64,000 nt of DNA from a virus. The stretch is taken from positions 32,001 through 96,000 of IMG/VR virus record IMGVR_UViG_3300045988_180675. One strand, given 5' to 3'. Made by a program: the position numbers and the translations under genes. Positions 26,200-39,775 of this stretch are shown piece after piece (within the stretch, counting starts at the first letter, position 1; every line of letters starts with the position of its first letter). Under the pieces are notes generated by a model that ran no database searches, was not told the DNA's origin, and saw only the letters and a list, made by a program, of their open reading frames with translations.

Positions 26200-26916
26200 T
26201 TACGACAACATTTGTCGCTTGTTAGATCTGATTATATTACGTGATTTTACTTCTACACTATATACATTGGAAGATTTATCTTCTTGATTTGTTCTTTCGC
26301 AGAACGAGGTTAACATATCTCTTAATTCTGCTTCATCGTAATATTCATCGTCTAGCACAAACATTGCTTTCACGTGGCAAACCTTTTCGTTGCCCTCAAC
26401 TGTATCCTTGCAGGCTTCTGGACACACGTCTAACAGAAAATCCTGTTGTGTAAGGTAGCCATATTTGGCGAATAACTCTGTTGTTTTCTCGAAAGCGATG
26501 TATTGTGGATCGCAAACCTCTTCACTACGGATCTTCATGTTGAAACTTTCAAAGTCTGGATTTTCAGCTATCAACTTTTGCATGAATTTGATCTCTTCGA
26601 CAATTTCATTCATTCTCTTTTCTGCTTTTTCACAAAGCTTTCCAAAACGTTTTTCTAGGACGTTAATCATGTACTGTTTATCTTTTTTACTAATTTCTTC
26701 CATCCACTCGATATGCGTCTTTCCGATTCCGTCTTGCCCAGACATCCAAAGGATCACTTCAATCTTCGTATCTCGGTAAAGCTTGTCAATGTTAAATAAT
26801 TGAGATAGATCGCTTCCATCTTTTGCTAAGTGGTGGAGCGTTCTCGTTACAATGTCATCAAACGATTCTGTCTGTGAATTTTTGTTGCAGATGATAATAT
26901 CGTATATTTTCTTCAT
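26200..26916 (-). CDS. Family A paralog (most divergent copy)
   Basis: MKKIYDIIICNK... and AKYGYLTQQDFLLDVCPEA... align with the other family A members. Confidence 0.65.
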   Translation of the reverse strand: MKKIYDIIICNKNSQTESFDDIVTRTLHHLAKDGSDLSQLFNIDKLYRDTKIEVILWMSGQDGIGKTHIEWMEEISKKDKQYMINVLEKRFGKLCEKAEKRMNEIVEEIKFMQKLIAENPDFESFNMKIRSEEVCDPQYIAFEKTTELFAKYGYLTQQDFLLDVCPEACKDTVEGNEKVCHVKAMFVLDDEYYDEAELRDMLTSFCERTNQEDKSSNVYSVEVKSRNIIRSNKRQMLS

Positions 26917-26941
26917 TTTTATTCTCCTTTGTTATACCTAT

Positions 26942-27021
26942 ATTATACTATACTATTTTCTAAAAAGCAAATATAGAAAGAGAAACTTACATTTGCTAAA
27001 AAGAATATAGTATGCTATAAT
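26942..27021. promoter_or_regulatory. Divergent promoter pair between two family A genes
   Basis: Minus: TTGCTT (26965-26970), 17 nt, TATAAT (26942-26947). Plus: TTGCTA (26993-26998), AAAAAGAA, 17-nt spacer, TATAAT (27016-27021). Confidence 0.65.
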
Positions 27022-27049
27022 AAGTATATAAGGAAAAGGAGAAGGTTAT

Positions 27050-27766
27050 ATGAAAAGAAAGTATAACATTGTAGTATGTCCTAGATGGGAATTACCACTT
27101 AAACAATTGAATATTGAAACAGGGGTAAAATTTTGTGGAAGAGAATTAGCTGATATGTCTGATGGGAAATTTCCACTTTCCTTATTAGATGTTGATAACG
27201 TCATCTCACACATTCGTCTTGATATTTTGACATATTTGTTTTTCATAAAACCAGAATATGATAGCTTTTTTCAGCTGGTAAAAGATGTTGCAAACAAAAA
27301 ACAAGATATTGAGAAAATTCTTCAAAATGTTTTTGGAGAATTATGTGACCTTGCAAAGAAGAGGATCTTAGTTATCCAAAAAGAGGTTCGTGAGATGTAT
27401 GAGGAATTTAAAAATGACGATGGAAAAACTATTGATGAAGAATTTGGCGATGATGTTCGTCCAGCTTTAGTTCCAGTCATTCACAAGATCGAAGAATCGC
27501 TTGAAAACTTTGTAAAAACTGGATATAACTACCAACACAAATATATTGAGGACAAGTACCCTGAAGCCATCAGAATTGAAGAAGAGCCAGATGGAGAAGA
27601 AATTGAGGTTATGGACCTATTATTCTTCTTTGATCCAAAGTGCTTAAATGTGGATCTACTCGAAAGACGAGTCGAGTCGTTTATTGAAGATATGCAATGT
27701 GATGCACGTATATTGCTGATTAAAAAGAATAGCATATTCCAACCAAGCAAGATGAAGATAAGTTAA
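27050..27766 (+). CDS. Family A paralog
   Basis: MKRKYNIVVCPRWELPLKQLN...; VKTGYNYQHKYIEDKYPEAIRIEEEPDGEEIEVMDLLFFFD. Confidence 0.75.
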   Translation: MKRKYNIVVCPRWELPLKQLNIETGVKFCGRELADMSDGKFPLSLLDVDNVISHIRLDILTYLFFIKPEYDSFFQLVKDVANKKQDIEKILQNVFGELCDLAKKRILVIQKEVREMYEEFKNDDGKTIDEEFGDDVRPALVPVIHKIEESLENFVKTGYNYQHKYIEDKYPEAIRIEEEPDGEEIEVMDLLFFFDPKCLNVDLLERRVESFIEDMQCDARILLIKKNSIFQPSKMKIS

Positions 27767-27794
27767 GTTAAAAACGAAAAGAGAGGAAAAATAC

Positions 27795-28250
27795 ATGGCA
27801 AAAGAAATTAACAAAGAAAAAGTATTAGAAGCCTACAAGCAGGCAACAAAAAAAGGAACATTAACGGAAGGACAGCTATTTGCATTTAGTCAGTTTGCGA
27901 GTCAGTTTATAGACGAATTTGGATATATGCTCAAGAAAGTTATGAGAGAGTTTTGTCCAGATGTTGCAAAGGATATTTATAAGCTACATCATTTTAAAAT
28001 TATGGATGATGTGATTTATCTCAATTATGACGCTGGAGAACTTGGAGAAAGAGAAGACTCTTTCTATATGCCACTCAATTGGATCGGATCCGATCTTACG
28101 AGAAAGGAAAAGAAAATTGAGGGAGAAATTGTTGAGCTTGAAAATCGAAAAAGACGTTTGCAGAAGATGATTGAAAGAAAGAGTGAAACACTTAAATATC
28201 TGGAAGAAGAATATGAGCGATTTGGAACGGAAGAAAGAGAGGCGAAGTAA
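27795..28250 (+). CDS. Family B paralog (globular N-domain plus coiled coil)
   Basis: 151 aa: ...LTEGQLFAFSQFASQF...FCPDVAKD...FYMPLNWIGSDLTRKEKKIEGEIVELENRKRRLQKM. Confidence 0.7.
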   Translation: MAKEINKEKVLEAYKQATKKGTLTEGQLFAFSQFASQFIDEFGYMLKKVMREFCPDVAKDIYKLHHFKIMDDVIYLNYDAGELGEREDSFYMPLNWIGSDLTRKEKKIEGEIVELENRKRRLQKMIERKSETLKYLEEEYERFGTEEREAK

Positions 28251-28726
28251 TGAAAGCGGGTATCGAAAATGCTAAGACAACATTAGAAATCTACGAAAAG
28301 CTAGAAGCTGGCAAAACAATTTCTGTTGAAGAAGTTGAAACTTGCTGGGGTTTTATTGCTGATGTTTACAGTGGGATGGAGAAAAAGGTGGAGAAGATAT
28401 TATCACTTTTTAGATATGGTGATAGAAATCTGTTCAAGAAGATATCGTGGATTAAGGTTGAAAAAAATACTGACGCTGTATATGTTGGATATGAAACAAC
28501 AAGGGGAAATGAAACCCAGGCTTCTTTGAAAAGAAAGTTTTTGTCAATGAGTGATAAAGAACTGAATGAGTGGCACCAAAAATCAAAGAAGAAAAATCTT
28601 GCTTCCTTGATCTTAGATATTGAAAGAACAAGACTTGAACTTACAGCATGCAAGCAATCAATTAGAAACAGTGACAAAGAAATAGAAGAATTAAAAAACA
28701 AATTAAAGAAAATGAAAAAGAGATAG
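28250..28726 (+). CDS. Family B paralog
   Basis: 158 aa, start overlaps the preceding stop (TAATG). ...ISVEEVETCWGFIADV...LSMSDKELNEWHQK...coiled coil. Confidence 0.7.
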   Translation: MKAGIENAKTTLEIYEKLEAGKTISVEEVETCWGFIADVYSGMEKKVEKILSLFRYGDRNLFKKISWIKVEKNTDAVYVGYETTRGNETQASLKRKFLSMSDKELNEWHQKSKKKNLASLILDIERTRLELTACKQSIRNSDKEIEELKNKLKKMKKR

Positions 28727-28741
28727 GAGAAGGTAAAAAGT

Positions 28742-28978
28742 ATGAGAAAAATTTTGGCAAGCGAAAAAGCATACAACATCATTACCGATAATTTGAAAGG
28801 TGTAGCGAAAGAGCTACATGCCTACAAGTTGGGAGATCTTGGTAGTTGTGAACAATTAGAAGAATTTATTGACGATAATTGCGATAGAAGTTACATCGCA
28901 AAAGGCGAAAATATTGAGGATGTTGAAGAATATATCGAAATTGCATCCTTTGACGACAATGGGGAAGTGATAAAATGA
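28742..28978 (+). CDS. Small acidic hypothetical protein
   Basis: 78-aa ORF, RBS AGGAGAAGG. Confidence 0.55.
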   Translation: MRKILASEKAYNIITDNLKGVAKELHAYKLGDLGSCEQLEEFIDDNCDRSYIAKGENIEDVEEYIEIASFDDNGEVIK

Positions 28979-29343
28979 AGAAAATAGGGAAATTATTTCT
29001 GGTGATTACTTTGGTATCGACTTTACTTGGATGTTTTGACACAAGAAGAGGTGGCGATAGAAGTCTAATGAGGGACGTTAAGCCTACTACTTACGAGTTA
29101 TCGGAACAAACAAAGAAAGAAATAGAAGAAGGAACAGACAAAATCATTATTGCCGAGTTCTTCTATCGTGAAAGGTCCACGAGTATGACAGAAGATTCCG
29201 TAACAGCTTCTATTGTGGCAACGGTAAATGCTATCAGCGAGAAGATGGAAGAAAATGGATATACGATTATCTCTTTGGATACGACAACACAGGGAGAAGA
29301 GTCGAGAGCAATTTCGTTTATAGCGATCTTCAGTAAAAAATAA
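28975..29343 (+). CDS. Lipoprotein
   Basis: MKKIGKLFLVITLVSTLLGC lipobox. Terminator at 29352-29377 (AGAGcTGGA/TCCACTCT plus T7). Confidence 0.7.
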   Translation: MKKIGKLFLVITLVSTLLGCFDTRRGGDRSLMRDVKPTTYELSEQTKKEIEEGTDKIIIAEFFYRERSTSMTEDSVTASIVATVNAISEKMEENGYTIISLDTTTQGEESRAISFIAIFSKK

Positions 29344-29392
29344 GAGAAGAAAGAGCTGGAATTTCCACTCTTTTTTTATCTGTGATTGGTTA

Positions 29393-29486
29393 GTGAACTA
29401 CTCGACAATAAATTGCCAAGTTTCCTGCTTCAACTACCATTGCGTCTAGCCTACATGGTTTATGTTGGGGCTATTCCATCTCCACT
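29393..29486. repeat. About 95-bp repeat, copy 1 (copy 2 at 63204-63330, beside the IS200-like remnant)
   Basis: GTGAACTACTCG.CAATAAATT.CCAAGTTTCCTGCTTCAACTACC.TTGC.TCTAGCCTACAT...GGGCTATTCCATC is shared with few mismatches. Copy 2 has an insertion of about 32 bp in the hairpin loop. Confidence 0.7.
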
Positions 29487-29537
29487 TAATATATTCTTTT
29501 TATAATAATTATTTCCTTCTAAATATCAAACTAATGC

Positions 29538-29566
29538 TTGCTAAAAAGAAATTACTGTGCTATACT
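29538..29566 (+). promoter_or_regulatory. Class P-A promoter
   Basis: TTGCTA (29538-29543), AAAAAGAA, 17-nt spacer, TATACT (29561-29566). Confidence 0.65.
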
Positions 29567-29597
29567 ATAGGTATAGAAAGAAAGAGAGAAAAATATT

Positions 29598-29822
29598 ATG
29601 AAAAAGATAAATCAAAAGACAGAACAAGTATCGGCACCAGAACAGGTATCAAAGCTACAACCATTTCCATTTATTGAAAATGAGGATTATTTATTAAAGT
29701 TAAAGAGTGGAGATTATGCTGTCGCATATTGGAACCAAGGGCAGTTTTATTCAGGATTTGGCGACCTATACATTGAAGAAGAGATTGTGGGTATTGTAGC
29801 ATTGAAGGATCTGGGGCTGTAA
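29598..29822 (+). CDS. Small hypothetical protein
   Basis: 74-aa ORF, first gene of a P-A cassette. Confidence 0.55.
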   Translation: MKKINQKTEQVSAPEQVSKLQPFPFIENEDYLLKLKSGDYAVAYWNQGQFYSGFGDLYIEEEIVGIVALKDLGL

Positions 29823-29823
29823 C

Positions 29824-30534
29824 ATGAAGAGAAGATACAACGTTGCAGTTTGTCCTAGATGGGATCTTCCAGTCGAGCATTTAAACACTGAAGCAGGAAT
29901 GCAATTTTGCGAAAGAGAGTTACAGGATATGTACGATGGAGAGTTTCCACTCGTCTTGTTGGATACTCGTGAGATTGCAAAAAACATCTGCTACGATCTT
30001 CTGTTTTATTTGTTTCTTATTTACCCTAGTTATTACGAGAGTTTCTTTTCGTTGATAAAGGAGATTAGTGAAAAGAGAAATGTCGAGCAAATTCTTGGAG
30101 ATTGTTTTGGTGAGCCATGTGAACTTGCCAAAAAGAAGATCCCTGCAATCGAGAAGGATATCGTTGGGATGTATGAAGAATTTAAGTTTGATAACGGAGG
30201 ATTTGTTAATAAAAAATTCGACAAAAACTACCGTTTATCCAGTCAGCACATTCTTTGTAGGTACGAACATTCACTTGAAAGCTTTGTGAAAACTGGCTAC
30301 TTACATCAATATGAATATATTGAAGATAAGTATCCAGAAGCCATTAGGGTTGAAAAAGAGGAAGATGGATCAGAAGTTGAAGTGATGGATCTATTATTCT
30401 TCTACGATCGTAAGAAATTGGATGAAGATGCCATTCGACAGCGTATCAATTTTTTTGCTAGTGAAACCAAATGCGAGGTTCGAGTTATAGTTGTTAAATT
30501 TGATGATGTGTCACAACAAGAAGAAAATGGATAA
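29824..30534 (+). CDS. Family A paralog
   Basis: MKRRYNVAVCPRWDLPVEHLN...; VKTGYLHQYEYIEDKYPEAIRVEKEEDGSEVEVMDLLFFYD. Confidence 0.75.
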   Translation: MKRRYNVAVCPRWDLPVEHLNTEAGMQFCERELQDMYDGEFPLVLLDTREIAKNICYDLLFYLFLIYPSYYESFFSLIKEISEKRNVEQILGDCFGEPCELAKKKIPAIEKDIVGMYEEFKFDNGGFVNKKFDKNYRLSSQHILCRYEHSLESFVKTGYLHQYEYIEDKYPEAIRVEKEEDGSEVEVMDLLFFYDRKKLDEDAIRQRINFFASETKCEVRVIVVKFDDVSQQEENG

Positions 30535-30552
30535 GAAAAGGGAGAACAAAAG

Positions 30553-31002
30553 ATGTTATTTGAAAGAAAAGACATAAAGAAGATTATCGAGATTAGCGAA
30601 AGAATTGCCGACGGGAATAAGTCGTTATCAGCTCAAGATGTCGTAGCGTTTGACTCATTTTATTCAAGCGTTAAGCTTGGTGTTGAGGTGAAGGTTGCAG
30701 AAATTGCCAACGCTTTCTATCCGATCACAAAGCATAAGTTTTTTGAACTAAGAGATTTCTGCATTGTTGACGATATGGTTAATGTTGCTTGTTATGACCT
30801 GGATGTGAATGTGTTTACATTCTCATTTCCAATCAGGATGTTTAACATGAGCAAGAAGGAAATCGAAAGTCACACATTCGACTTATGTCGTCGTCAACTC
30901 AGAAACAAGAAGAAGGAATTAGAAGAAAAAGAAAAAGAAGTAGAAATGCTAAAACAGAAGATTTCTGATTTGGAACAGGTTTGCCAATCTAAAGAATATT
31001 AG
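30553..31002 (+). CDS. Family B paralog
   Basis: 149 aa: ...LSAQDVVAFDSFYSSV...FYPITKHKF...FSFPIRMFNMSKKEIESH...coiled coil. Terminator at 31010-31048. Confidence 0.7.
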   Translation: MLFERKDIKKIIEISERIADGNKSLSAQDVVAFDSFYSSVKLGVEVKVAEIANAFYPITKHKFFELRDFCIVDDMVNVACYDLDVNVFTFSFPIRMFNMSKKEIESHTFDLCRRQLRNKKKELEEKEKEVEMLKQKISDLEQVCQSKEY

Positions 31003-31056
31003 AAGAAGAAAAGTGGGCAGCACTTAATAAGGTGTGGTCCACTTTTTGTATAACTT

Positions 31057-31083
31057 GTTTCGAGTAGTTTCGACCTGTTTCAA
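31057..31083 (+). repeat. Three direct GTTTCGA repeats at 10-bp spacing just upstream of the sRNA-1 promoter
   Basis: GTTTCGA at 31057, GTTTCGA at 31067, GTTTCAA at 31077. The -35 of the next promoter is at 31096. Confidence 0.6.
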
Positions 31084-31130
31084 GCAAACTATTATTTGCG
31101 TTATACTGTTATATATGCTATAATTTAGTT

Positions 31131-31225
31131 AGTCGATCTACCGAGGGTAGAAACGATCTCGAAAGACGAGCTAAACTAATTTCTGTAGGACGCAGCAGAC
31201 ACGGTAACTCGTCTTTTGCCTTTTT
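31131..31225 (+). ncRNA. sRNA-like unit 1 (paralog of 32540-32634)
   Basis: Promoter TTGCGT (31096-31101), 17 nt, TATAAT (31119-31124). Hairpin CTACC-GAG-GGTAG flanked by GATC...AAACGATC. Outer stem GACGAG/CTCGTC encloses hairpin TTCTG-TAGGACGCAG-CAGA. T-runs at 31213-31225. No ORF. Confidence 0.5.
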
Positions 31226-31240
31226 AAGTAACAAATTTGG

Positions 31241-31415
31241 TTGGACTAAAATTAGACCAAATTCAGACCAATAGTAGACTAAGCTTAGACTAGGACCAGT
31301 CTAAAATCGGACTAGAATTAGGGCTATTTCAGACCAAGACTAGACCGATACCAAACTAAATCCAGACTGTGATTAGGATGTATTCAGACTACAACTAGAC
31401 CGAAATCAGGACTTA
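31241..31415 (+). repeat. Array of about 16 direct 11-bp repeats (core T.AGACYA), strictly helically phased
   Basis: The RGAC cores start at 31243, 31254, 31265, 31276, 31287, 31309, 31321, 31331, 31342, 31353, 31364, 31376, 31386, 31397 and 31409. Spacing is 10-12 bp, with one position skipped or inverted near 31298. Confidence 0.8.
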
Positions 31416-31701
31416 TCATCATCTTGATCGTGAATCATTGTGGATCAACGTAAGAAAACAAAAGAAGCTGATCCAGGAGGAAACAAGAGAGAACAAAAAG
31501 GACCAATGATAAGAAATCAAATAGGAAGCAATAAACGATCACAGGAACAATACAAAGTAGAGATATAAAAGAAAAAAGGTGGAAGAACAATGCAGCCACC
31601 TTTTTATATTTTATGTGTGTGCGTTAAGAGATGCTCGCCCAGCCAGAATACAACCATGAAGGCATCCGTAATACAAAAATATACAATATAGCAAAACAAC
31701 C

Positions 31702-32253
31702 CTATAAGGAACTAATATAAGCCACAACCCCATTACGCAACATGGGAACATTATCGCTCATACCAAATAGACAATGATCGCAATTCTCTATAAGACCTTC
31801 TAAAGACAACATATACTTCAATCGTAAAGAGGTAAACAATATAGAACTTGTAAAAATATCCTTAGCAACCACAGAAGGACTTCTTAATGGACCTATATCT
31901 GCCAATACACTCTCTTTAGGTTTTCTATACATCGTAAACTTATCCCCAGGCTTAACAATATAGTTAGTTAGATTCATAATTGGATTCAAGTATATATTGG
32001 AGCAACCTTTCCTATCAACCAATGTTGTTTTATTTTCTGTAATCATATTTGCGATCGTCTTTTCGATAATGATGAACAAAGATTGGAAGTCCACCTTCGT
32101 TTCAGGAAAACAATGGTGATAAGACTCAATACCAAAAGTTTCCTTTAATTCATTAAAAAAGAATTTGTCACTAAAGTCCATTCCGAATAGTTGAGTAGTA
32201 AATACAGTTTCTTCCGTTTTTTCATCTTTCAAGATCAGTTCTATTTTTCTCAT
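31702..32253 (-). CDS. Hypothetical protein; the only solid ORF inside the repeat-rich region
   Basis: 183-aa ORF. Promoter TTGAGA, 17 nt, TATAAT upstream. RBS AAAGAGAGAAGAAAAT. Bidirectional terminator at 31572-31606. No motif recognised. Confidence 0.6.
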   Translation of the reverse strand: MRKIELILKDEKTEETVFTTQLFGMDFSDKFFFNELKETFGIESYHHCFPETKVDFQSLFIIIEKTIANMITENKTTLVDRKGCSNIYLNPIMNLTNYIVKPGDKFTMYRKPKESVLADIGPLRSPSVVAKDIFTSSILFTSLRLKYMLSLEGLIENCDHCLFGMSDNVPMLRNGVVAYISSL

Positions 32254-32539
32254 ATTTTCTTCTCTCTTTCTTTACCCAAATTATATCATATTCTTCATAT
32301 TTTCTCAAAAGAAAATAAAATAGAAAGACACAAGATATGCACAAACAAATAGATCCAAACCTCGTTCCCTGTTTCTTTCTTAGCTCTTCTTTTTTTTATT
32401 AAAAGAGAGAGAATAGGAAAGTGGTAAGAAAAGGTATACGCAAGAAAGGATACAGGAAGAACAAAGGAAGAACACAGGAAATTTAACTCAGTCAAAATTA
32501 CAGCTTGCCATATACTGTTATTCCTGTTATACTTTAAGT

Positions 32540-32634
32540 AGCTGATCTACCAAGGGTAGAAACAGATCCGAGAAACCACTTTAAAACTTCCTGTAAGACG
32601 CAGCAGGAAAGATAAGGTGGTTCCTTGTTTTTTA
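32540..32634 (+). ncRNA. sRNA-like unit 2 (paralog of 31131-31225)
   Basis: Promoter TTGCCA (32505-32510), 17 nt, TATACT (32528-32533). Same GATCTACC.AGGGTAGAAAC.GATC element. Outer stem AACCAC/GTGGTT, inner TTCCTG-TAAGACGCAG-CAGGAA. T6 at 32627-32633. Confidence 0.5.
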
Positions 32635-32890
32635 TATAAAGAAATAAGAATAGGAGAAGTCGGACATGAGAACTCTCCAGTTTTTCTCTTGCCCCTCTTC
32701 TTTTTTTAGAAAAGAAAGAAATAAGGAAAAGGCAGGGAAAACATAAGGGAGGTATATCAGAACGAAATAATATGGATCCAGATTATGTAATCAGTGGAAC
32801 GGGAATTACAGGATCCAACCGTGAGTCCATATATTGTTTGCTATATCTTAGGTTGCTGCATTACTCTACTTTATCTTTATTTATATAATA

Positions 32891-33575
32891 TTGGATTCCT
32901 CTACTATACCAATATACAGTATGTACAGTTATTATATTGGGCTATTCTAGTAGTCCATATTTATTATTCAGTATCGTTTATCTTGGGCTACTCTAATAGA
33001 ACAAAATTTTACAATAAGCCCATTATTCTCTATGGTTCTATCTTTTGTTTTTGGTTTGCTCTAGTAGCCCAGTATTATAACGATCTATATTTATACTTGG
33101 TCTACTCTATCGACCCAGTATCCTTTATTTATGCAAATTATTTTTTGGGCTTATCTACTAACCCATATTCTTATATATTACCTATATTTTTGGGCTGATC
33201 TACTGGACCAACTTCATTCTTGGTTTTCTCTATCAACCCATTATTTATCCAGATCAAACTAATTCTTGGGCTATTCTATCAGCCCATACTTTTTCTATTC
33301 TTGGTTTTCTCTATAAGACCAATCTCATTACACTGGGCTACTTAAGTATACCAGTCTATACAGATTCTTGGGCTACTAGACGGAACCATTTTTCTTATCT
33401 TAGTTTTCTTATTTCTTGGGCTACTCTACTATCCATATTATTTTCTTGATCTACTTCTTTTTGGGTCGCTATAGCAGACCAATATTTTATATATCTCTTT
33501 ATTTTCTTGGGCTACTATACGAGTCCAATTTTTATTCTTTAATATCTTTAATCTTGGGCTACTATAGCAGACCGT
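32891..33575 (+). repeat. Array of about 17 degenerate 21-22-bp inverted-repeat sites (consensus TTGGGCTACTCTA..AG.CCA), mostly spaced 44-49 bp apart, with some at about 30-35 bp
   Basis: Sites start near 32891, 32937, 32983, 33051, 33097, 33145, 33190, 33220, 33266, 33301, 33333, 33368, 33416, 33461, 33507 and 33554, plus a degenerate or inverted one near 33016. Example: TTGGTCTACTCTATCGACCCA, where TGGTC and GACCA are complementary. Confidence 0.8.
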
Positions 33576-34885
33576 GTTTTTAGGTGATTTTTGGAAAACG
33601 TGCCCTGCTCGCTGCTCTCTGGCTCTATGCAATGTTTATTTTCGCCCACTTCCGCCTCCCCTTTGGGGTTCGTTCGCAGCTCGCTTTTTCTTTTTTATAC
33701 TTCTTATTTTCCTATCCATCTTCTTGTTATTATCTTATACAGGAAAATCTACGTGATCACCGTGATGAAAGTGGTGCAAAATGGGATTTTAAACGGAAAA
33801 AGAGAGAAATATCAAGAAAACTAAAGAGAAAGTCCTTATATTCTCCTTTATTTAAAGGGAAAAAAGAAAGAAAGTATCGAAAAAGTAAACTTCTTACTAG
33901 ATTTCGGTATATTTTCTTAACAAATTCCCTTATTTTCAGCTTCTTCTTACTAATTTCCTACTGAATTCCGATTCTTAAAAAAGGAAAAAAGAAAGAAAAA
34001 ATGTCGTTTCTGAATACAAAAATATCGAATTATGTCAAATTCATCCCTATTTTAAGGAAGAAATGCCTATTCTTGTCCGTTCTCTCTTTATTTTCAGGAA
34101 GCCGTTGTGTTTTCCCATGTCTTTTCTGTATCTTTTTCTTATGTTTGAAAAGAAATTAACAGGAAAAGGGTAGAGAAGTTACCCAAGAATGCTTAAATTT
34201 ATCACTTAATTCTATGATCGTAATGAGAAAAGGCGAGATAAGATGCGAAAAAAGTGCAGAAATCGCCTATTTTACCCCTTCGACCTAGGTTTAAAAGGAA
34301 AAGTGGGGCTAGAGCATATTGTTACTAAGTAGAAAGCCTTTGTGTTTTCCTGTGTTTTTTCTTTTTATTTTCCCTTGTTTAAAAAGAAGAAGAAAGGAAA
34401 AAGGAAATTCATAGGCAAAAGTGCTGGAATGCACTTTCGCTCAAACTTATATTCTCAAAACTTATGAAGAAAACTAGGAAATAAAGAAGGAAGATACAGG
34501 AGTGACCTAGGTATCAATGATATTTAAGTTATGATGAAGCATTGGAAGAAGAAAAAGAAGGTACTGGAGAAATTAAAGTAGAGATTATGGTTATGTCGTA
34601 GATGGGGTTTATGATTTCCTTTTATTTTCTTTTGTTTGGGGTTTGATTATTCATTGATACTTCGGCATACAGGGAAGCCACTAGATTTTCTTGAAGTGAT
34701 CTCGAATTATTTCTTTCGTTTGAAAAGAATAAGATACGGAAGAGAAAAAGATATTATTTCGTATCATAGGTTTCTTTTGCTTTTGCCTGCACTACACGGT
34801 GTTGGACGCCTGTGAGTTAAGTGTTAATACTTGCTTATTAAGATGAAAATAGTGCAAAAAATAAACAGTATTTTATGTAAATTCT

Positions 34886-34919
34886 GCGACAATACATATA
34901 CTCAATATGTAAATGTCAC
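34886..34919. repeat. Imperfect hairpin homologous to the candidate oriT hairpin, located downstream of mob
   Basis: GCGACA-AT-ACATAT-ACTCA-ATATGT-AA-TGTCAC. Compare GTGACA-AT-ACATAT...ATGTCAC at 35910-35943. Confidence 0.5.
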
Positions 34920-35022
34920 ACATAGTTTTCTTTGCAGTTACTATTTTATATTCTTTTAAGAATATGTTTTGGAGTATTTTTATATTCTCTATGGAAAGCA
35001 TTTTTATATTCTAGTTAGCAAA

Positions 35023-35053
35023 TAAAAAAGGAAGATATTTGATATTATCTTCC
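35023..35053 (-). terminator. Rho-independent terminator overlapping the mob stop codon
   Basis: GGAAGATA (35030-35037) / TATCTTCC (35046-35053), followed by TTTTTT on the minus strand. Confidence 0.6.
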
Positions 35054-35863
35054 TGTGAATTCTGATAAAGCTTGTCTATTTTTGCTTTCTTTATCACTAT
35101 GTTCTTGTCTAAGTTTTTTAGCTCTTTCACGTTCTTCTTGGATAGCTTTATTGATGAAATCCATCTTGCTTAGATGCTCTCGTTTCATTGGAACACGGTC
35201 AATCATCAAGCCTAAACTCTGACATATCTCACAGAATTTTTCTCTGATCATAGCTGTGTAGGTGATCAGTCTGTTGTTGAATCTTGACTCTGGTTCATCC
35301 GCAAATGGAAGTGGAATACCAGCTTGTTCAAGTGCTTTTTCCTTTCCGATCTCAAGTCTAGTAGTGCCATCAGGATTACGCTCCTTATAAACAAAAATTT
35401 TACGTTCGTGAATATGTGGAGTTGACTCATCAAGATGTAAAGCTGAATCGAGAACGATAACACGACCTTTTGTGATTTGCTTTTCATACTCTGCCAACTG
35501 CTTATAGGCTTCAGATAATTTATCTGCATCTGGAAAGTCATATAAGTTTCCGATCTGGATAATACTTTCCGTAGGTCTGTATCTTGATGACTTACGGAAT
35601 TGATCCATCGTCATAAGCCTATCCTTTTTTCTGATTTTTCTGACTTTTTCATTTCTAAATTCTAAAGCATCTGCAAAGTGTTCTTCATAAAATCGTTTCT
35701 CAGCAGCCTCAAAGTCGTCTGCCATTTCTGGATAAAAGCACTCATACACATTATCAGAAACTCTTTCTTGGATGACATGAGGAGATTCATTTAAATCATA
35801 ATTTCGACAATTATGGTTTGGATTTCCCTCCCATTTTTGCCCATTGTGAATTGATACTTTCAT
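35045..35863 (-). CDS. mob: MobV-family relaxase (Pre/Mob plasmid recombination enzyme)
   Basis: Start at MKVSIHNGQKW (ATG 35863, RBS AAGAGG). N-terminal NHNCRNYDL (HxxR-type motif I). SALHLDESTPHIHERKIF is the HxDE...PHxH motif, nearly identical to the MobM-type HLDESTPHMH as I recall it. Confidence 0.8.
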   Translation of the reverse strand: MKVSIHNGQKWEGNPNHNCRNYDLNESPHVIQERVSDNVYECFYPEMADDFEAAEKRFYEEHFADALEFRNEKVRKIRKKDRLMTMDQFRKSSRYRPTESIIQIGNLYDFPDADKLSEAYKQLAEYEKQITKGRVIVLDSALHLDESTPHIHERKIFVYKERNPDGTTRLEIGKEKALEQAGIPLPFADEPESRFNNRLITYTAMIREKFCEICQSLGLMIDRVPMKREHLSKMDFINKAIQEERERAKKLRQEHSDKESKNRQALSEFTGR

Positions 35864-35891: not shown

Positions 35892-35943
35892 AGTATACCA
35901 CATAAAAAAAGTTGTGACAATACATATATATAATGTCACAACT
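35892..35943 (-). promoter_or_regulatory. mob promoter overlapping a perfect 10-bp-stem hairpin (candidate oriT / RSA site)
   Basis: Minus strand: TTGTCA (35915-35920), 17 nt, TATACT (35892-35897). Inverted repeat AGTTGTGACA (35910-35919) / TGTCACAACT (35934-35943) with a 14-nt AT loop. Confidence 0.45.
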
Positions 35944-35953
35944 AAAATTGTAT

Positions 35954-36715
35954 TTACACTGCAAAAGACAAGTCCTTTGGAAGATCAGCATAAAACTCTT
36001 CTCCTGTTTCAAGACAAAGACAGCCAAGTGGTAACTGCCTTGCACATCCACAATCAAGATTGATTAGATGTCCTTTTGCTGCCTTTGAAATCTTTGGTAG
36101 TCCTCCAGATCTAGTTTGACCATAAGAACATTTGAATACTGGGGTATGACCGATCAGAAGCGTAGTATCTTTGTACAGGGTATATAAAGAATGAAACTTG
36201 TTATACAAAAGAGTAGGGTTCATACTGTTGGCATATTCTCTACTCCACAACACACGTTCACGATCATGCGTGTTGGCATCTTTATACAATAAGATATCGT
36301 TATAGTAATAATCTAAATGGGTTGCATGAGCGATGTAGTATTGCTTATCGTTGATACTTAAATTAGGAATAACGATTGGGCATTGAGTAAGGTCGTAGAG
36401 GATTGAATACTGTTCTGTAAATAGAAGCTCTTCAAACTGTTTTAAAGTTTTTTCGTTTCCATTTGAACTCCATATATACATCGCATCGTCATCTTTTTCA
36501 AGCAAAGCCTGAAGCATAAGATGCTCATGATTTCCAATCAATAAAACGATATTCGGCTTAGATAATATGTGTTGTAACAACTTAATTGATTGATCGCCTC
36601 TATCTATTACATCTCCATTGACATATAAAATATCTTCATCAGAGAAATTTATCTTTTTTAATATATCCAGAAAATAGTCGTATTGACCATGAATATCACT
36701 CATTACATAATGCAT
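35954..36715 (-). CDS. Calcineurin-like metallophosphoesterase (PPP-type Ser/Thr phosphatase or ApaH-like)
   Basis: MSDIHGQYDYF, GDVIDRGDQS and LIGNHEHLM motifs (DxH, GDxxDRG, GNHE). Confidence 0.85.
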   Translation of the reverse strand: MHYVMSDIHGQYDYFLDILKKINFSDEDILYVNGDVIDRGDQSIKLLQHILSKPNIVLLIGNHEHLMLQALLEKDDDAMYIWSSNGNEKTLKQFEELLFTEQYSILYDLTQCPIVIPNLSINDKQYYIAHATHLDYYYNDILLYKDANTHDRERVLWSREYANSMNPTLLYNKFHSLYTLYKDTTLLIGHTPVFKCSYGQTRSGGLPKISKAAKGHLINLDCGCARQLPLGCLCLETGEEFYADLPKDLSFAV

Positions 36716-36821: not shown

Positions 36822-38627
36822 CTAGATTTCTTTTTTGTATATCTGGATATAATCCATATCTTTTTTCTCTTCGTTATATCCTTTAACTTGTACGATTTCC
36901 TGAACTGTAAAATCTTGTAGATATACGATTGTGTCAAATGACTTAGTAGAACGTTTCGCTTGTTCATAGGTTACATTTTGCATTCCTCTTAATGTTAGAT
37001 CAACAAGCTTATCACTTGCATCTCTTGCCGATTGAGAGTGGATCGATAAAGCCGTTCTACATCCAGAGTTTGATAATGTAATAGCAGATACCACTTCAGG
37101 ACCTTTTACTTCACCAATAATAAATACATTGGCACCAGCAACTAAAGCCATCTGTCCTAACTGCTCTAGCGTACATGGTTGTTGTCCGTTTTGTGGATTT
37201 AATACAACATGTTCAAACATGATTCCTTTTCGATAAGCAAATAATTCATCGTTTTCTTGGATACATAAGATTTCTGCCGAAGATTCATAGGCTTCTTCTA
37301 AAAACCAATTAAGCAAAGTTGTTTTACCAGATCCAGGAGGACCAGCAAATACGACTCCCTTACTATACTTCCCACAATCAAGTAGGTAGTTGCGAATCTT
37401 TTCATCCATCATTCCAGCTTTGATTAAATCGTCAGCCATTAACTTCTTTCTAGGTAACTTTCGAATATGAATAATAGGATATCCAGAGCATGTAATATAT
37501 GGTGCTGTGATAGAAAATCTTAACAGGTATTGTTCATCCTGCTCATCTGTAAATGTCTGGGTTGGAACACCTAAGTCGATTCCGTTTACAGTCGCTACAC
37601 CATTAATAAATCTTATATAGTCAGCCTGATCGATAAAGGTGATATTTGAAAGATACGCCTTTCCTTTGATTCTGACTCTTATTGAATAAGGATCCGTAAT
37701 TTTAATATCACTAATATCTGGATCGTCAATAAGGTCCTGTACGATATATAATTCAAATAATGCTCTATGTAGCTTTTCAATTAGTGCTGGGACATCTTCT
37801 CTTTGAAGTCTTAAAGTATCTACAAATGTTCTTTGGATGTATGCCTTTAACATCTCCATAAAAGATTCTTCATCTTTTTGACCTCTTAATACACTATAAT
37901 AAGAATTCTTTTCTGCTTCTGTAATATAGCCCATTGCCTCTTGGAAGATTGAGACAAAATGCTCGTAATCGCAAATTGTTTTTATTTGCATATCTTTAGC
38001 TTTTAGGTTATAAACAAGTTCTTCTCGACTATCGATTTCTTCAAGCCGTCTTGGAATATAAGTATCCAGCTGATTTAAAAATGGCTTTTGTGTAGACGAT
38101 GTTTTTAATTTTTCATCTTGTTCCTCTACCATTTGTAGATGTAGTTCTCTTTCTTCTTCTGTATAATTTCTCTTTATATCATTAGGAATGATCAGCTTGC
38201 TTTTTTCTTCAGTAGTATTATCTTGCTTTACCCCTATAAAATCATACAATTCACCAAATTTAATTTTTTGCCCATAAAAACGAATTAACACATAAGCCTC
38301 AAGATAATCTCCAACTAGTTTTACAGAGATCGATAAAGGATCAAAAAGTGTTTCTTTCTTTTTAATGTTTAAAAATTCGTTTATCTTTTTTTGCAGTTCT
38401 GTGATACCAATAAGGAGACTATGCTTTGATACAAACATGTAAACTGGATTAGCCCAAACGCCACCTTTGTCTGGAATGATGGTATTTGCTATTTTTTCAA
38501 AAGATTCGCCTTTTGAATAAATGATAAATTCATCTCTGTCTTGTAATTGGTATTTCTCTTCTAATTTTGCTAATTGAGAATTGTTTTTTGCGATTCCAAC
38601 AATTACATTTCCTTTATCTCTTGTCAT
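36822..38627 (-). CDS. CpaF/TadA/VirB11-like secretion ATPase with a long N-terminal extension
   Basis: Walker A FAGPPGSGKTTLLN. IIGEVKGPEV (compare GEVRGxEA). SGCRTALSIHSQSARDA (compare TGHxGxxSTxHAxS). 601 aa. Confidence 0.85.
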   Translation of the reverse strand: MTRDKGNVIVGIAKNNSQLAKLEEKYQLQDRDEFIIYSKGESFEKIANTIIPDKGGVWANPVYMFVSKHSLLIGITELQKKINEFLNIKKKETLFDPLSISVKLVGDYLEAYVLIRFYGQKIKFGELYDFIGVKQDNTTEEKSKLIIPNDIKRNYTEEERELHLQMVEEQDEKLKTSSTQKPFLNQLDTYIPRRLEEIDSREELVYNLKAKDMQIKTICDYEHFVSIFQEAMGYITEAEKNSYYSVLRGQKDEESFMEMLKAYIQRTFVDTLRLQREDVPALIEKLHRALFELYIVQDLIDDPDISDIKITDPYSIRVRIKGKAYLSNITFIDQADYIRFINGVATVNGIDLGVPTQTFTDEQDEQYLLRFSITAPYITCSGYPIIHIRKLPRKKLMADDLIKAGMMDEKIRNYLLDCGKYSKGVVFAGPPGSGKTTLLNWFLEEAYESSAEILCIQENDELFAYRKGIMFEHVVLNPQNGQQPCTLEQLGQMALVAGANVFIIGEVKGPEVVSAITLSNSGCRTALSIHSQSARDASDKLVDLTLRGMQNVTYEQAKRSTKSFDTIVYLQDFTVQEIVQVKGYNEEKKDMDYIQIYKKEI

Positions 38628-39775
38628 TTTTGTTTCTCCACATTGTAGCTATAGGTTCTCCCAGAAAGCCCTATTACTTGTAACTTATATTCACCTTTAA
38701 CTAGTTTTATAGTTGTTTCTAATTTACCAACTTCTTCCTGTGATAAGAATGTAGCTCCATCATCTCCAATGATACGAGCCTTTGGATCTGCCACTTTGTA
38801 ATTTCCTTTTTTTATTTCCTTTGTTTCATAGCTGACACTTACTTTATAATCGCCATCTTCATTGATTACGATTTTTTCTTCTTGAATGTCATCACTTTCT
38901 AGTGATTTCTTCTTTTCGTTTTCTGAGTTATCCGATGATTCATAAGTAGGAGTGTTAGGGACATTTACATCTGTTGATTCATCCCATTCCTTACCTGAAG
39001 TTGAATATTTAATAAAACCATAACCCTCAATCAAGTAATAACCACTATTGAGCCATGTAGGCAATGTGATCGAGATTGTTTTGTTTTGCATATATTCAAA
39101 GTTTTTAATTTCGTATGTTTCAGTTGACATTAAAGCTTTTACATCTGCTTTGATTTTATAGTTCTTTAAAATTGTACCAACGTAAACATCGGTCGAATAA
39201 GTTTTGCCTTTTTCTAGTCCGATAATAGTTCCTGCCTCAGATATATTTCCAGAACGTAACTTTGCGTTTCCGATCGACTCAATTACAGCTTGGCTATCCC
39301 CTGCTGAGGTTAGTTGGTTGGCATCGGAACTAGGATTCACATTTAATTCTTTTACATCTGTATCAAAAGTGTATCTACCCGCTGTATTAGCTTTTAACCC
39401 ACAAACGCCTATTGTATATCCAAGATCATAAAATCTTTCAACAGTAACATCGCCTTCAAAGATGCCTTCATTCTGTCTGTATACGATCTTATCTCCTGGA
39501 TACATCGTTGGGATCTTTGTATCCGTACTTTCATTAAGCCACGCCACACGACTTGAATCGCCATTTTTAACAACGCTATTTCTTGTGAAGGTCGCATCTC
39601 CCAAAAATGCTTCATAATAAGTGTTATCTCTTTCAATATAGAAAGATCCGTTTTTTAATTTATTTACATTCGTTTCTATCGTTGCCTCATTACTATTGTC
39701 TTGAGAATCTTCAGATGAACATCCTGTTAATAATGAAAGTGTTAATCCTATTAATAAAACTTTTTTCAAAATCAT
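38624..39775 (-). CDS. Lipoprotein, translationally coupled to the ATPase
   Basis: MILKKVLLIGLTLSLLTGCSSED lipobox. Beta-rich, with an Ig-like C-terminal part. Its stop overlaps the ATPase start. Confidence 0.75.
   Translation of the reverse strand: MILKKVLLIGLTLSLLTGCSSEDSQDNSNEATIETNVNKLKNGSFYIERDNTYYEAFLGDATFTRNSVVKNGDSSRVAWLNESTDTKIPTMYPGDKIVYRQNEGIFEGDVTVERFYDLGYTIGVCGLKANTAGRYTFDTDVKELNVNPSSDANQLTSAGDSQAVIESIGNAKLRSGNISEAGTIIGLEKGKTYSTDVYVGTILKNYKIKADVKALMSTETYEIKNFEYMQNKTISITLPTWLNSGYYLIEGYGFIKYSTSGKEWDESTDVNVPNTPTYESSDNSENEKKKSLESDDIQEEKIVINEDGDYKVSVSYETKEIKKGNYKVADPKARIIGDDGATFLSQEEVGKLETTIKLVKGEYKLQVIGLSGRTYSYNVEKQK

Follow-up and report, generated by a model that had tools for sequence, protein, structure and literature searches.

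The 64-kb window analysed here, positions 32,001 to 96,000 of IMG/VR virus record IMGVR_UViG_3300045988_180675, a contig of 199,422 bp, carries a large array of pseudo-palindromic sites in non-coding DNA beyond the 3' end of a MobV-type relaxase-like gene. The array comprises 16 units of 22 bp, and an array stands beside the relaxase gene in seven of the seven lineages that have the same lipoprotein-ATPase-relaxase module (the window's family and six diverged ones). Because diverged plasmids keep this architecture although their sites differ in sequence, we regard the array as a real cis-acting element. It belongs to a known kind, the cis-acting site arrays of plasmids, here conserved across a broad and poorly studied group of gut megaplasmids. 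By analogy with sopC of the F plasmid and stbS of R388, we tentatively read it as a protein-loading platform within an extended transfer and maintenance region, which may serve to position or anchor the plasmid, possibly in a manner coupled to transfer.

Reading of the sequence, together with extraction by pattern and position weight matrix (PWM), placed the first eight units at 32891, 32937, 32983, 33051, 33097, 33145, 33190 and 33220, and the other eight at 33266, 33301, 33333, 33368, 33416, 33461, 33507 and 33554. All 16 have the same orientation, on the plus strand. They follow one another at 46, 46, 68, 46, 48, 45, 30, 46, 35, 32, 35, 48, 45, 46 and 47 bp, with 46-47 bp as the modal spacing, and the unit contains a TTGG..CCAA dyad. 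The consensus of the unit is TTGGGCTACTCTAGTAGCCCAA, and the ideal site is the 22-bp palindrome TTGGGCTACT-CT-AGTAGCCCAA. In the real units near-invariance is limited to TTGG, T(C/A)TA and CCA, in blocks about 9 bp apart, and conservation is higher in the left half than in the right. The original prediction, made from the sequence alone, had described many inverted-repeat sites in this region, which the analysis confirms; its count of about 17 is a fair one, with 16 clear units and one or two degenerate ones possible, such as the sequence at 32854-32879, which keeps the CTCTA centre and has lost TTGG and CCA. The spacings it described (mostly 44-49 bp, a few of about 30-35 bp and one of 68 bp) agree with those measured. 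It was also correct in seeing near-palindromes of 21-22 bp, but its picture of 6-bp arms around a neutral spacer of about 10 bp does not fit the near-invariant T(C/A)TA centre, and the right arm, said often to read AGACCA or GGACCA, does so in only three to four of the 16 units (AGACCA in two, GGACCA in one and AGACCG in one).

The motif is enriched and concentrated in the array. A nine-base skeleton, TGG-N5-T-N-TA-N5-CC, matches 17 times in the window, compared with 1.0 +/- 1.1 times in 100 shuffles (largest count, 5), and 15 of these 17 matches fall inside 32892-33573. The full-length PWM, run over the whole window, found no site outside the array, the best outside score being 4.4 bits; the array units, from which that same PWM was built, score about 19-32 bits. 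Neither an Rfam match, at gathering thresholds, nor a tRNA was found in the window, and blastn of 31000-35000 against phage and plasmid collections gave no match.

The same array, with 12-19 units, is present in 18 related contigs, many of them about 180-206 kb in length. Its spacing pattern differs between sub-lineages, with a main mode of 45-49 bp (66% of 230 spacings in 16 distinct arrays) and minor classes of 30-32, 35, 40-41, 68 and 89 bp. In 245 units with flanks from these relatives, only unit positions 0-20 carry information, with next to none in the spacers. When 14 sequences of the intergenic region were aligned, the array ranked among its least conserved parts (identity 0.43-0.72, with about 0.9 at 33600-33700); since the motif is nonetheless kept in 212 distinct units, it is maintained against rapid turnover. 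Across these 212 units, the arms show no more Watson-Crick pairing than shuffled ones at eight of nine pairs (z -1.9 to +1.8), the exception being the near-invariant T9-A12 pair, which lies above the shuffled level. This absence of arm covariation argues for recognition of duplex DNA by a protein rather than for a hairpin in RNA or single-stranded DNA (ssDNA), and the units look like protein-binding sites. A hairpin function, whether as structured RNA or as ssDNA (sso, terminators, attC-like elements), is unlikely and was rejected on this ground; no Rfam match was found either. The earlier suggestion that so large an array would load many protein molecules is supported by information that resides in the 22-bp unit alone, by a motif kept in the absence of arm covariation and by the conserved architecture. 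A part in copy number or stability is possible as well.

The remaining related loci either stop short of the array or are no longer similar to the window by the time the array's left edge is reached (L155, L158, L160 and L165). In L155, L158 and L165 similarity stops at or just before that edge and is followed by unrelated sequence with an open reading frame (ORF); in L155 and L158 the stop comes right after a lone unit, TTGGGCTAGTCTATAAGT. In L160 similarity stops earlier, and unrelated coding sequence occupies the array's place. We rejected genuine absence of the array from these four loci and read them instead, by eye, as probable insertions of an IS605-type TnpB element that displaced it beyond the DNA examined. 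The intergenic region is about 1.5 kb longer in L153, L156 and L161. A pattern scan of genome and viral contigs for two copies of TTGGGCTACT within 45 bp returned mostly unrelated coding repeats, for example L105. One possibly related match, L083:230-850 in a Lachnospiraceae metagenome-assembled genome (JAZNGM010000024), is an array of 57-bp period beside 13-bp tandem repeats, in which TTGGGCTACTC(T/C)AGCCG(G/A)ACCA alternates with TTGGGCGCCACCACGCAAACCA in units that resemble those of the window. The 8 kb around it look chromosomal by eye (AraC-type regulator-like ORFs), and this array may hint at the host clade.

Hundreds of contigs, the longest of 346 kb, carry homologues of the module's ATPase (49-65% identity), and we examined six diverged lineages: L172 (MT835757), L173, L174, L175, L202 and L203. 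What these six and the window have in common around the module is only the lipoprotein, ATPase and relaxase-like genes, and usually the phosphoesterase gene; a single-stranded DNA-binding protein (SSB), RecJ and two small proteins are variably shared. The six distant arrays each have 7-19 units; these are pseudo-palindromes of about 20-22 bp whose centre is rich in TA, and their site sequence differs (Table 1). The arrays are polar. In all six that were refined by PWM (window, L172, L174, L175, L202 and L203), the half of the unit with more information faces away from the relaxase gene, the difference between halves being marginal in L174 and L175. Nearly all units lie on a single strand in five of the six; L202 is near-symmetric and its strand calls are mixed. 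The order of relaxase gene, inverted repeat and array is kept even in L174, in which the relaxase gene is inverted. Spacings of 34-36 and 45-47 bp differ by about one helical turn, from which we infer a similar rotational offset between neighbouring sites.

In L174 the array can be told apart from the replication and partition repeats of the same element. Within the same 12 kb (repeat regions L174:2515-3515 and L174:5640-6736), 23 Rep_3 iterons (CGCCCAAAAACGCTACCTTTA) lie upstream of a Rep_3 gene; these are 21 bp long and spaced at 42-45 bp (about 44 bp), then at 22 bp next to the rep gene. Five dispersed parS-like palindromes, ATTATCACAGTGATAAT, lie upstream of parA-parB, a gene pair about 5 kb from the array. 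Both sets are unlike the relaxase-adjacent array, whose motif does not recur near rep or par in L174, and the parA promoters of L174 and L175 contain no array-type site. In L175, 8-bp repeats are found upstream of ParA. For these two lineages the separate repeats rule out that the array is the centromere of adjacent par genes, and since their rep and par repeats differ from the array, it represents a third cis element.

The form of the array has parallels in known systems. sopC of the F plasmid consists of 12 repeats of 43 bp, each with a 16-bp inverted repeat (PMC3177203), and the window array is like it in the number of direct repeats (about a dozen), in the period (about 43-46 bp), in the short inverted repeat that each carries, of a kind bound by a dimer, in its single non-coding locus and in its variable copy number (PMC3177203). 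Unlike the window array, sopC directly follows its own partition genes, sopAB; the array also departs from sopC in its unconserved spacers, asymmetric units and irregular spacing (30-68 bp). None of the window ORFs screened, every large one within about 10 kb of the array among them, had a ParA or ParB Pfam match. In R388, the stb operon beside oriT contains stbS, a centromere-like array of repeats, and stbS/StbA balances plasmid positioning for segregation against transfer (PMC3098194; doi 10.1101/2022.04.29.490116). It is made of two sets of five 9-bp direct repeats with an 11-bp period, a design that matches a second array of the window, of phased 11-bp direct repeats (Table 1), and not the palindrome array (doi 10.1101/2022.04.29.490116). 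Direct repeats phased at 10-12 bp, the feature of parC, stbS and tubC, are likewise present in the 11-bp array and absent from the palindrome array, with its 46-bp spacing and dyads. No StbA-like gene was recognised. The family of repeats in oriP of Epstein-Barr virus (EBV), 20 repeats of 30 bp that each hold an 18-bp EBNA1 palindrome, serves in episome retention and not in initiation. It too is a large array of palindromic dimer sites, but it is eukaryotic viral, has no homology to the array and is much more regular in its repeats.

On the reading that we tentatively favour, the sites, about 16 in number, would be bound by one element-encoded, sequence-specific DNA-binding protein, either a dimer or a two-domain monomer. 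The array would belong to an extended control region for transfer and maintenance, lying beyond the candidate oriT hairpin as seen from the MobV-type relaxase and ATPase genes. Many copies of the protein would load on the sites and form a large polar nucleoprotein complex, which, in the manner of F sopC or R388 stbS, would serve to position or anchor either the plasmid or its transfer origin, and the site sequence would co-evolve with the binding protein between plasmid lineages. Several points weigh against this. In the window no gene for ParA, ParB, ParM or a small helix-turn-helix (HTH) or ribbon-helix-helix (RHH) protein adjoins the array, and no binding protein was found; nor did we find near the arrays any small ORF conserved between lineages, including those of RHH or HTH type. 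The ATPase is of the secretion type, with no recognisable DNA-binding domain, and no such array lies near its more distant homologue on the Butyrivibrio plasmid pCY360. A second centromere is not required, since par-type repeats are already present elsewhere in relatives and the 11-bp phased array in the window. The inverted repeat at 34886-34919 is a candidate oriT or nick hairpin, a role that we infer, and the window covers 64 kb of about 199 kb.

A bolder version, which we think unlikely, is that the array is a polar 'transfer centromere', a new class of cis-element confined to a large superfamily of uncultivated gut Clostridia megaplasmids. It would work with the relaxase and the ATPase-lipoprotein module and would either dock the transfer origin of a 200-350-kb plasmid at the secretion machinery or time establishment in the recipient. 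Its partner would be the ATPase, the N-terminal domain of the ATPase or the relaxase, and not ParA/ParB, ParM/ParR or Rep.

Table 1. Features around the palindrome array in the window, and units of the relaxase-adjacent arrays of six diverged lineages
Feature	Coordinates	Strand	Description
Palindrome array	32891..33575	+	16 pseudo-palindromic 22-bp units, (ttC)TTGGGCTACTCTAnnAGnCCAa; non-coding, 685 bp
Possible degenerate 17th unit	32854..32879	+	TGCTGCATTACTCTACTTTATCTTTA; 18 bits in PWM refinement
GC-rich conserved non-coding block	33590..33690	.	Right edge of the array, toward the relaxase gene; two direct repeats, TTTGGAAAACGTGCCCTGCTCGCT and TTTGGGGTTCGTTCGCAGCTCGCT
Conserved non-coding spacer, relaxase gene to array	33691..34885	.	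GTGTTTTCC/GGAAAACAC-type repeats; TTCCTAC repeats at 33944-33969
Inverted repeat	34886..34919	.	GCGACAATACATATACTCAATATGTAAATGTCAC; directly past the 3' end of the relaxase gene
MobV-type relaxase-like gene	35045..35863	-	272 aa; HxxR (NHNCR) and HxDE..PHxH (HLDESTPHIHE) motifs
Second inverted repeat	35911..35942	.	GTTGTGACA-N14-TGTCACAAC; upstream of the relaxase gene
Metallophosphoesterase gene	35954..36715	-	Member of the conserved module
CpaF/TadA/VirB11-type secretion ATPase gene	36822..38627	-	601 aa; N-terminal extension of about 295 aa without assignment
Lipoprotein gene	38624..39775	-	383 aa; LLTGC lipobox; last 4 bp shared with the start of the ATPase gene
Small RNA (sRNA)-like element A	31096..31226	+	Paralogue of B; immediately left of the 11-bp array
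11-bp phased direct-repeat array	31243..31408	+	Core [AG]GAC[CT][AG]; 13 cores, 11 on one 11-bp lattice
183-aa ORF between the two arrays	31702..32253	-	Close relatives only
sRNA-like element B	32505..32634	+	Promoter, conserved hairpin, terminator; about 250 bp left of the palindrome array
Three 236-238-aa proteins	26200-26916 (-), 27050-27766, 29824-30534		
Three 149-158-aa proteins	27795-28250, 28250-28726, 30553-31002		C-terminal coiled coil
L172 (MT835757) array			Unit TGTGTATAGCTTATATACACAA; about 18 copies
L173 array			Unit CTAGTAnTAGAAGnCCA; about 9 copies
L174 array			Unit AGCAAATATATAGGTGC; 11-12 copies
L175 array			Unit GGGCTGTATATGAAGCCC; about 7 copies
L202 array			Unit ATGGAnAGATTACATGTCCAT; 13 copies, exactly 34 bp apart
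L203 array			Unit ACCCTCTTCTATAGCGTGG; 18 copies, 35-36 bp apart

To the right of the array lie, in order, about 1.3 kb of well-conserved non-coding DNA, an inverted repeat and a minus-strand operon for the relaxase, the metallophosphoesterase, the ATPase and the lipoprotein (Table 1). The block nearest the array, at 33590-33690, is among the best-conserved intergenic non-coding stretches (identity 0.88-0.91). A sequence similar to its direct repeats, GAAAAnTGGCGnAGCCTTCTCTC, occurs in four copies around the array of L173 (17746-19257) and, in L202 (13815-14438), between the relaxase gene and the array; this repeat class is possibly equivalent to the block. No conserved small ORF was found in the spacer that follows. 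The relaxase-like protein ends in a C-terminal coiled coil, and its residues H17, R20, H143, E146, H150 and H152 are invariant in five lineages; it falls below the cut-off of Pfam Mob_Pre (E 0.007), which the L174 homologue matches at 4e-12. The two inverted repeats that flank its gene have GACAATACATATA in common, and they may be the operator and the oriT of the relaxase. The core of the repeat at 34886-34919, ACATATTGAGTAyATGTA, recurs in L173 and L174, and its adjoining arm, TATGTATTGTCGCA, in L172. A structure model of the ATPase gave only a CpaF/VirB11-type fold, plus the unassigned N-terminal domain. The neighbouring proteins had no usable matches in Pfam, PHROGs or NCBIfam, and sequence searches of the PDB with the 183-aa, 272-aa and 248-aa proteins found nothing.

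The pairing of a relaxase gene with HxxR and HxDE..PHxH motifs and adjoining inverted repeats is like the MOBV oriT of pMV158-type plasmids. Known MOBV oriTs span about 40 bp with two to three inverted repeats, and to our knowledge no array of 350-850 bp with 7-19 sites has been described for them. The palindrome array could nevertheless be a multi-site binding locus of the MobV-like HUH protein itself, at which dimers of the 272-aa protein would assemble or regulate a relaxosome or an HUH-primed replication origin. The relaxase gene is the one constant neighbour of the arrays, the order of gene, hairpin and array survives inversion of the gene, and a nick hairpin with binding repeats beside it is a common arrangement among HUH initiators, the nic and bind loci of pMV158 RepB being a precedent. 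The likeness of the sites to those of the window also roughly tracks relaxase identity and not ATPase identity, in a correlation over six lineages that was judged by eye. Thus L173, L203 and L175 (38-43% relaxase identity) have TAGA/AGCCC-like cores; L172 and L174 (26-29%) have none, though the L174 ATPase is one of the two closest. Yet no array accompanies the 22 relaxase-like homologues in IMG/VR that lack the ATPase module (27-38% identity and one 40% fragment), and almost none of these loci has 400 bp of non-coding DNA near the gene, which argues that the array is not required by the relaxase alone. In addition, the GACAATACATATA repeats on either side of the gene look like the relaxase's own recognition sites and are unlike the array unit. 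We find it unlikely that the array is a binding locus of the relaxase.

It is likewise doubtful that the units are iterons of an unrecognised replication initiator, in which case the array would be an origin or a copy-number locus that acts by handcuffing or titration, like P1 incA. The array resembles Rep_3 iteron arrays (P1 incA, F incC and that of L174) in having many copies of a site of about 19-22 bp, one half strong and the other weak, in one orientation and with lineage-specific sequence; such fast divergence of sites between lineages is as in incompatibility determinants. The true Rep_3 iterons of L174 even form a similar array (23 x 21 bp, at 44 bp and then 22 bp), and the cumulative GC skew has a local minimum directly right of the palindrome array. 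The spacing speaks both ways: units of 22 bp at 45-49 bp (about 2 x 23) would suit iterons, but spacings of 30-35 and 40-41 bp are also present. Unlike Rep_3 arrays, the window array has no adjoining rep gene, and in none of the lineages is a Rep-like gene present within about 10 kb. No DnaA-box cluster was found near the array, L174 has Rep_3 with different iterons 8 kb from its array, whose motif does not recur near Rep_3, and the genes beside the L174 and L175 arrays look like membrane proteins.

The polarity of the arrays would also suit a barrier of the Ter/RTP or Sal-box type that stops replication forks, a transfer helicase or transcription from one side. The units have one orientation in five of the six quantified arrays and the same polarity relative to the relaxase-gene side in six of six; each site has a strong and a weak half, and T runs follow some units, which score as terminator-like. 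Even so, a common orientation can come from unit duplication alone, the stems are weak and without covariation, no Tus- or RTP-like protein was seen, and there is no obvious reason why the specificity of a barrier should change so fast. We regard this explanation as improbable.

That the array lacks a function, or is something other than a protein site (a decaying 46-bp satellite, a degenerate CRISPR, a hairpin element of RNA or ssDNA or a coding repeat), is most improbable: its period is roughly regular, TRF called no clean tandem repeat and an ORF (32794-33198) overlaps part of it, but motif positions are conserved and spacers are not, seven diverged lineages have the same architecture, and the hairpin form lacks arm covariation and an Rfam match. 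A CRISPR array was rejected because the degenerate 22-bp repeats are too short, their spacing varies from 30 to 68 bp and no cas genes occur among the screened window ORFs; a coding repeat was rejected because the distances between units do not come in multiples of 3 and differ from one relative to another.

The array sits within a mostly non-coding stretch of about 4 kb (31003-35044), which holds to its left, in order, sRNA-like element A, the 11-bp array, the 183-aa ORF and sRNA-like element B. The two sRNA-like elements each have an extended -10 promoter, a conserved hairpin (GATCTACC.AGGGTAGAAAC) and a T-run. Their long stem shows compensatory changes (GACGAG/CTCGTC versus AACCAC/GTGGTT) around a conserved loop, CTGTA[AG]GACGCAGCAG, and neither matches Rfam. 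In the close relatives that were checked the elements are conserved, usually together, and neither was seen in the distant lineages. Each immediately precedes one of the repeat arrays. About 100 proteins are homologous to the 183-aa protein at 77-96% identity, and many of them come from contigs of 180-206 kb; the AlphaFold2 model of the 183-aa protein was too poor to search with (pLDDT 59). Further left, 26200-31002 contains a cluster of paralogous gene sets without family matches, their paralogy judged by eye from the translations.

The 11-bp array, with the core YAGACYA, is conserved in 11 relatives, in which it has 7-18 cores and the consensus YAGACTA, and looks like a centromere or operator of the parC/stbS/tubC type; no partner protein was recognised for it. 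The original prediction proposed that one DNA-binding specificity is presented as direct repeats in this array and as palindromes in the other. The comparison does not support this. In the window and the 11 relatives the 11-bp core is mostly YAGACTA, with AGACTA commoner than AGACCA (by eye, not tallied), and the palindrome-arm position that corresponds to its T carries C in 193 of the 212 units, with T in 3; the CC of the arm is nearly invariant. PWMs of the palindrome half-sites also fail to pick out the 11-bp array. Given the differing cores and these PWM results, we treat the two arrays as separate elements.

The element that carries the array is most likely a conjugative megaplasmid of gut Clostridia, to judge from its genes. 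The window encodes LPXTG/SpaA-type adhesins, a sortase, SecA, two SSBs, RecJ, a CHC2/Toprim primase, PhoH-PIN and the secretion-type ATPase, a content that points to a conjugative megaplasmid of Bacillota (Clostridia-like). The best SecA and ATPase matches on sequenced plasmids are to Vescimonas, Subdoligranulum and Butyrivibrio. Two records of 199,422 bp (Ga0557493_009743 and Ga0557493_022496, from JGI metagenome 3300053491) are identical over the 11.9 kb compared, and the second begins at window position 33650. Two records of the same size with different start points suggest a circular molecule, and the element is thus probably a circle of about 199 kb. Position 33650 falls exactly between the two direct repeats of the GC-rich block, a start that may be a coincidence or a physical nick or end. 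A close relative in the window's family is filed as a viral contig in IMG/VR, and the same misfiling as viral has been described for the related 'Hodor' gut megaplasmids (PMC12934698).

Elements of about 180-350 kb like this one are widespread in metagenomes of the human-gut type, where they are often misfiled as huge phages, and their signals for replication, segregation and transfer are essentially unannotated. The array is conserved, easily recognised and lineage-specific, and thus offers a practical marker for the transfer and maintenance region of these plasmids. It is a likely determinant of incompatibility or specificity, and the 22-bp site provides a handle for catching the protein that would bind it. 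If the array is indeed tied to the relaxase-ATPase module, and not to Par or Rep, it would represent a new type of cis-element for the biology of conjugation.

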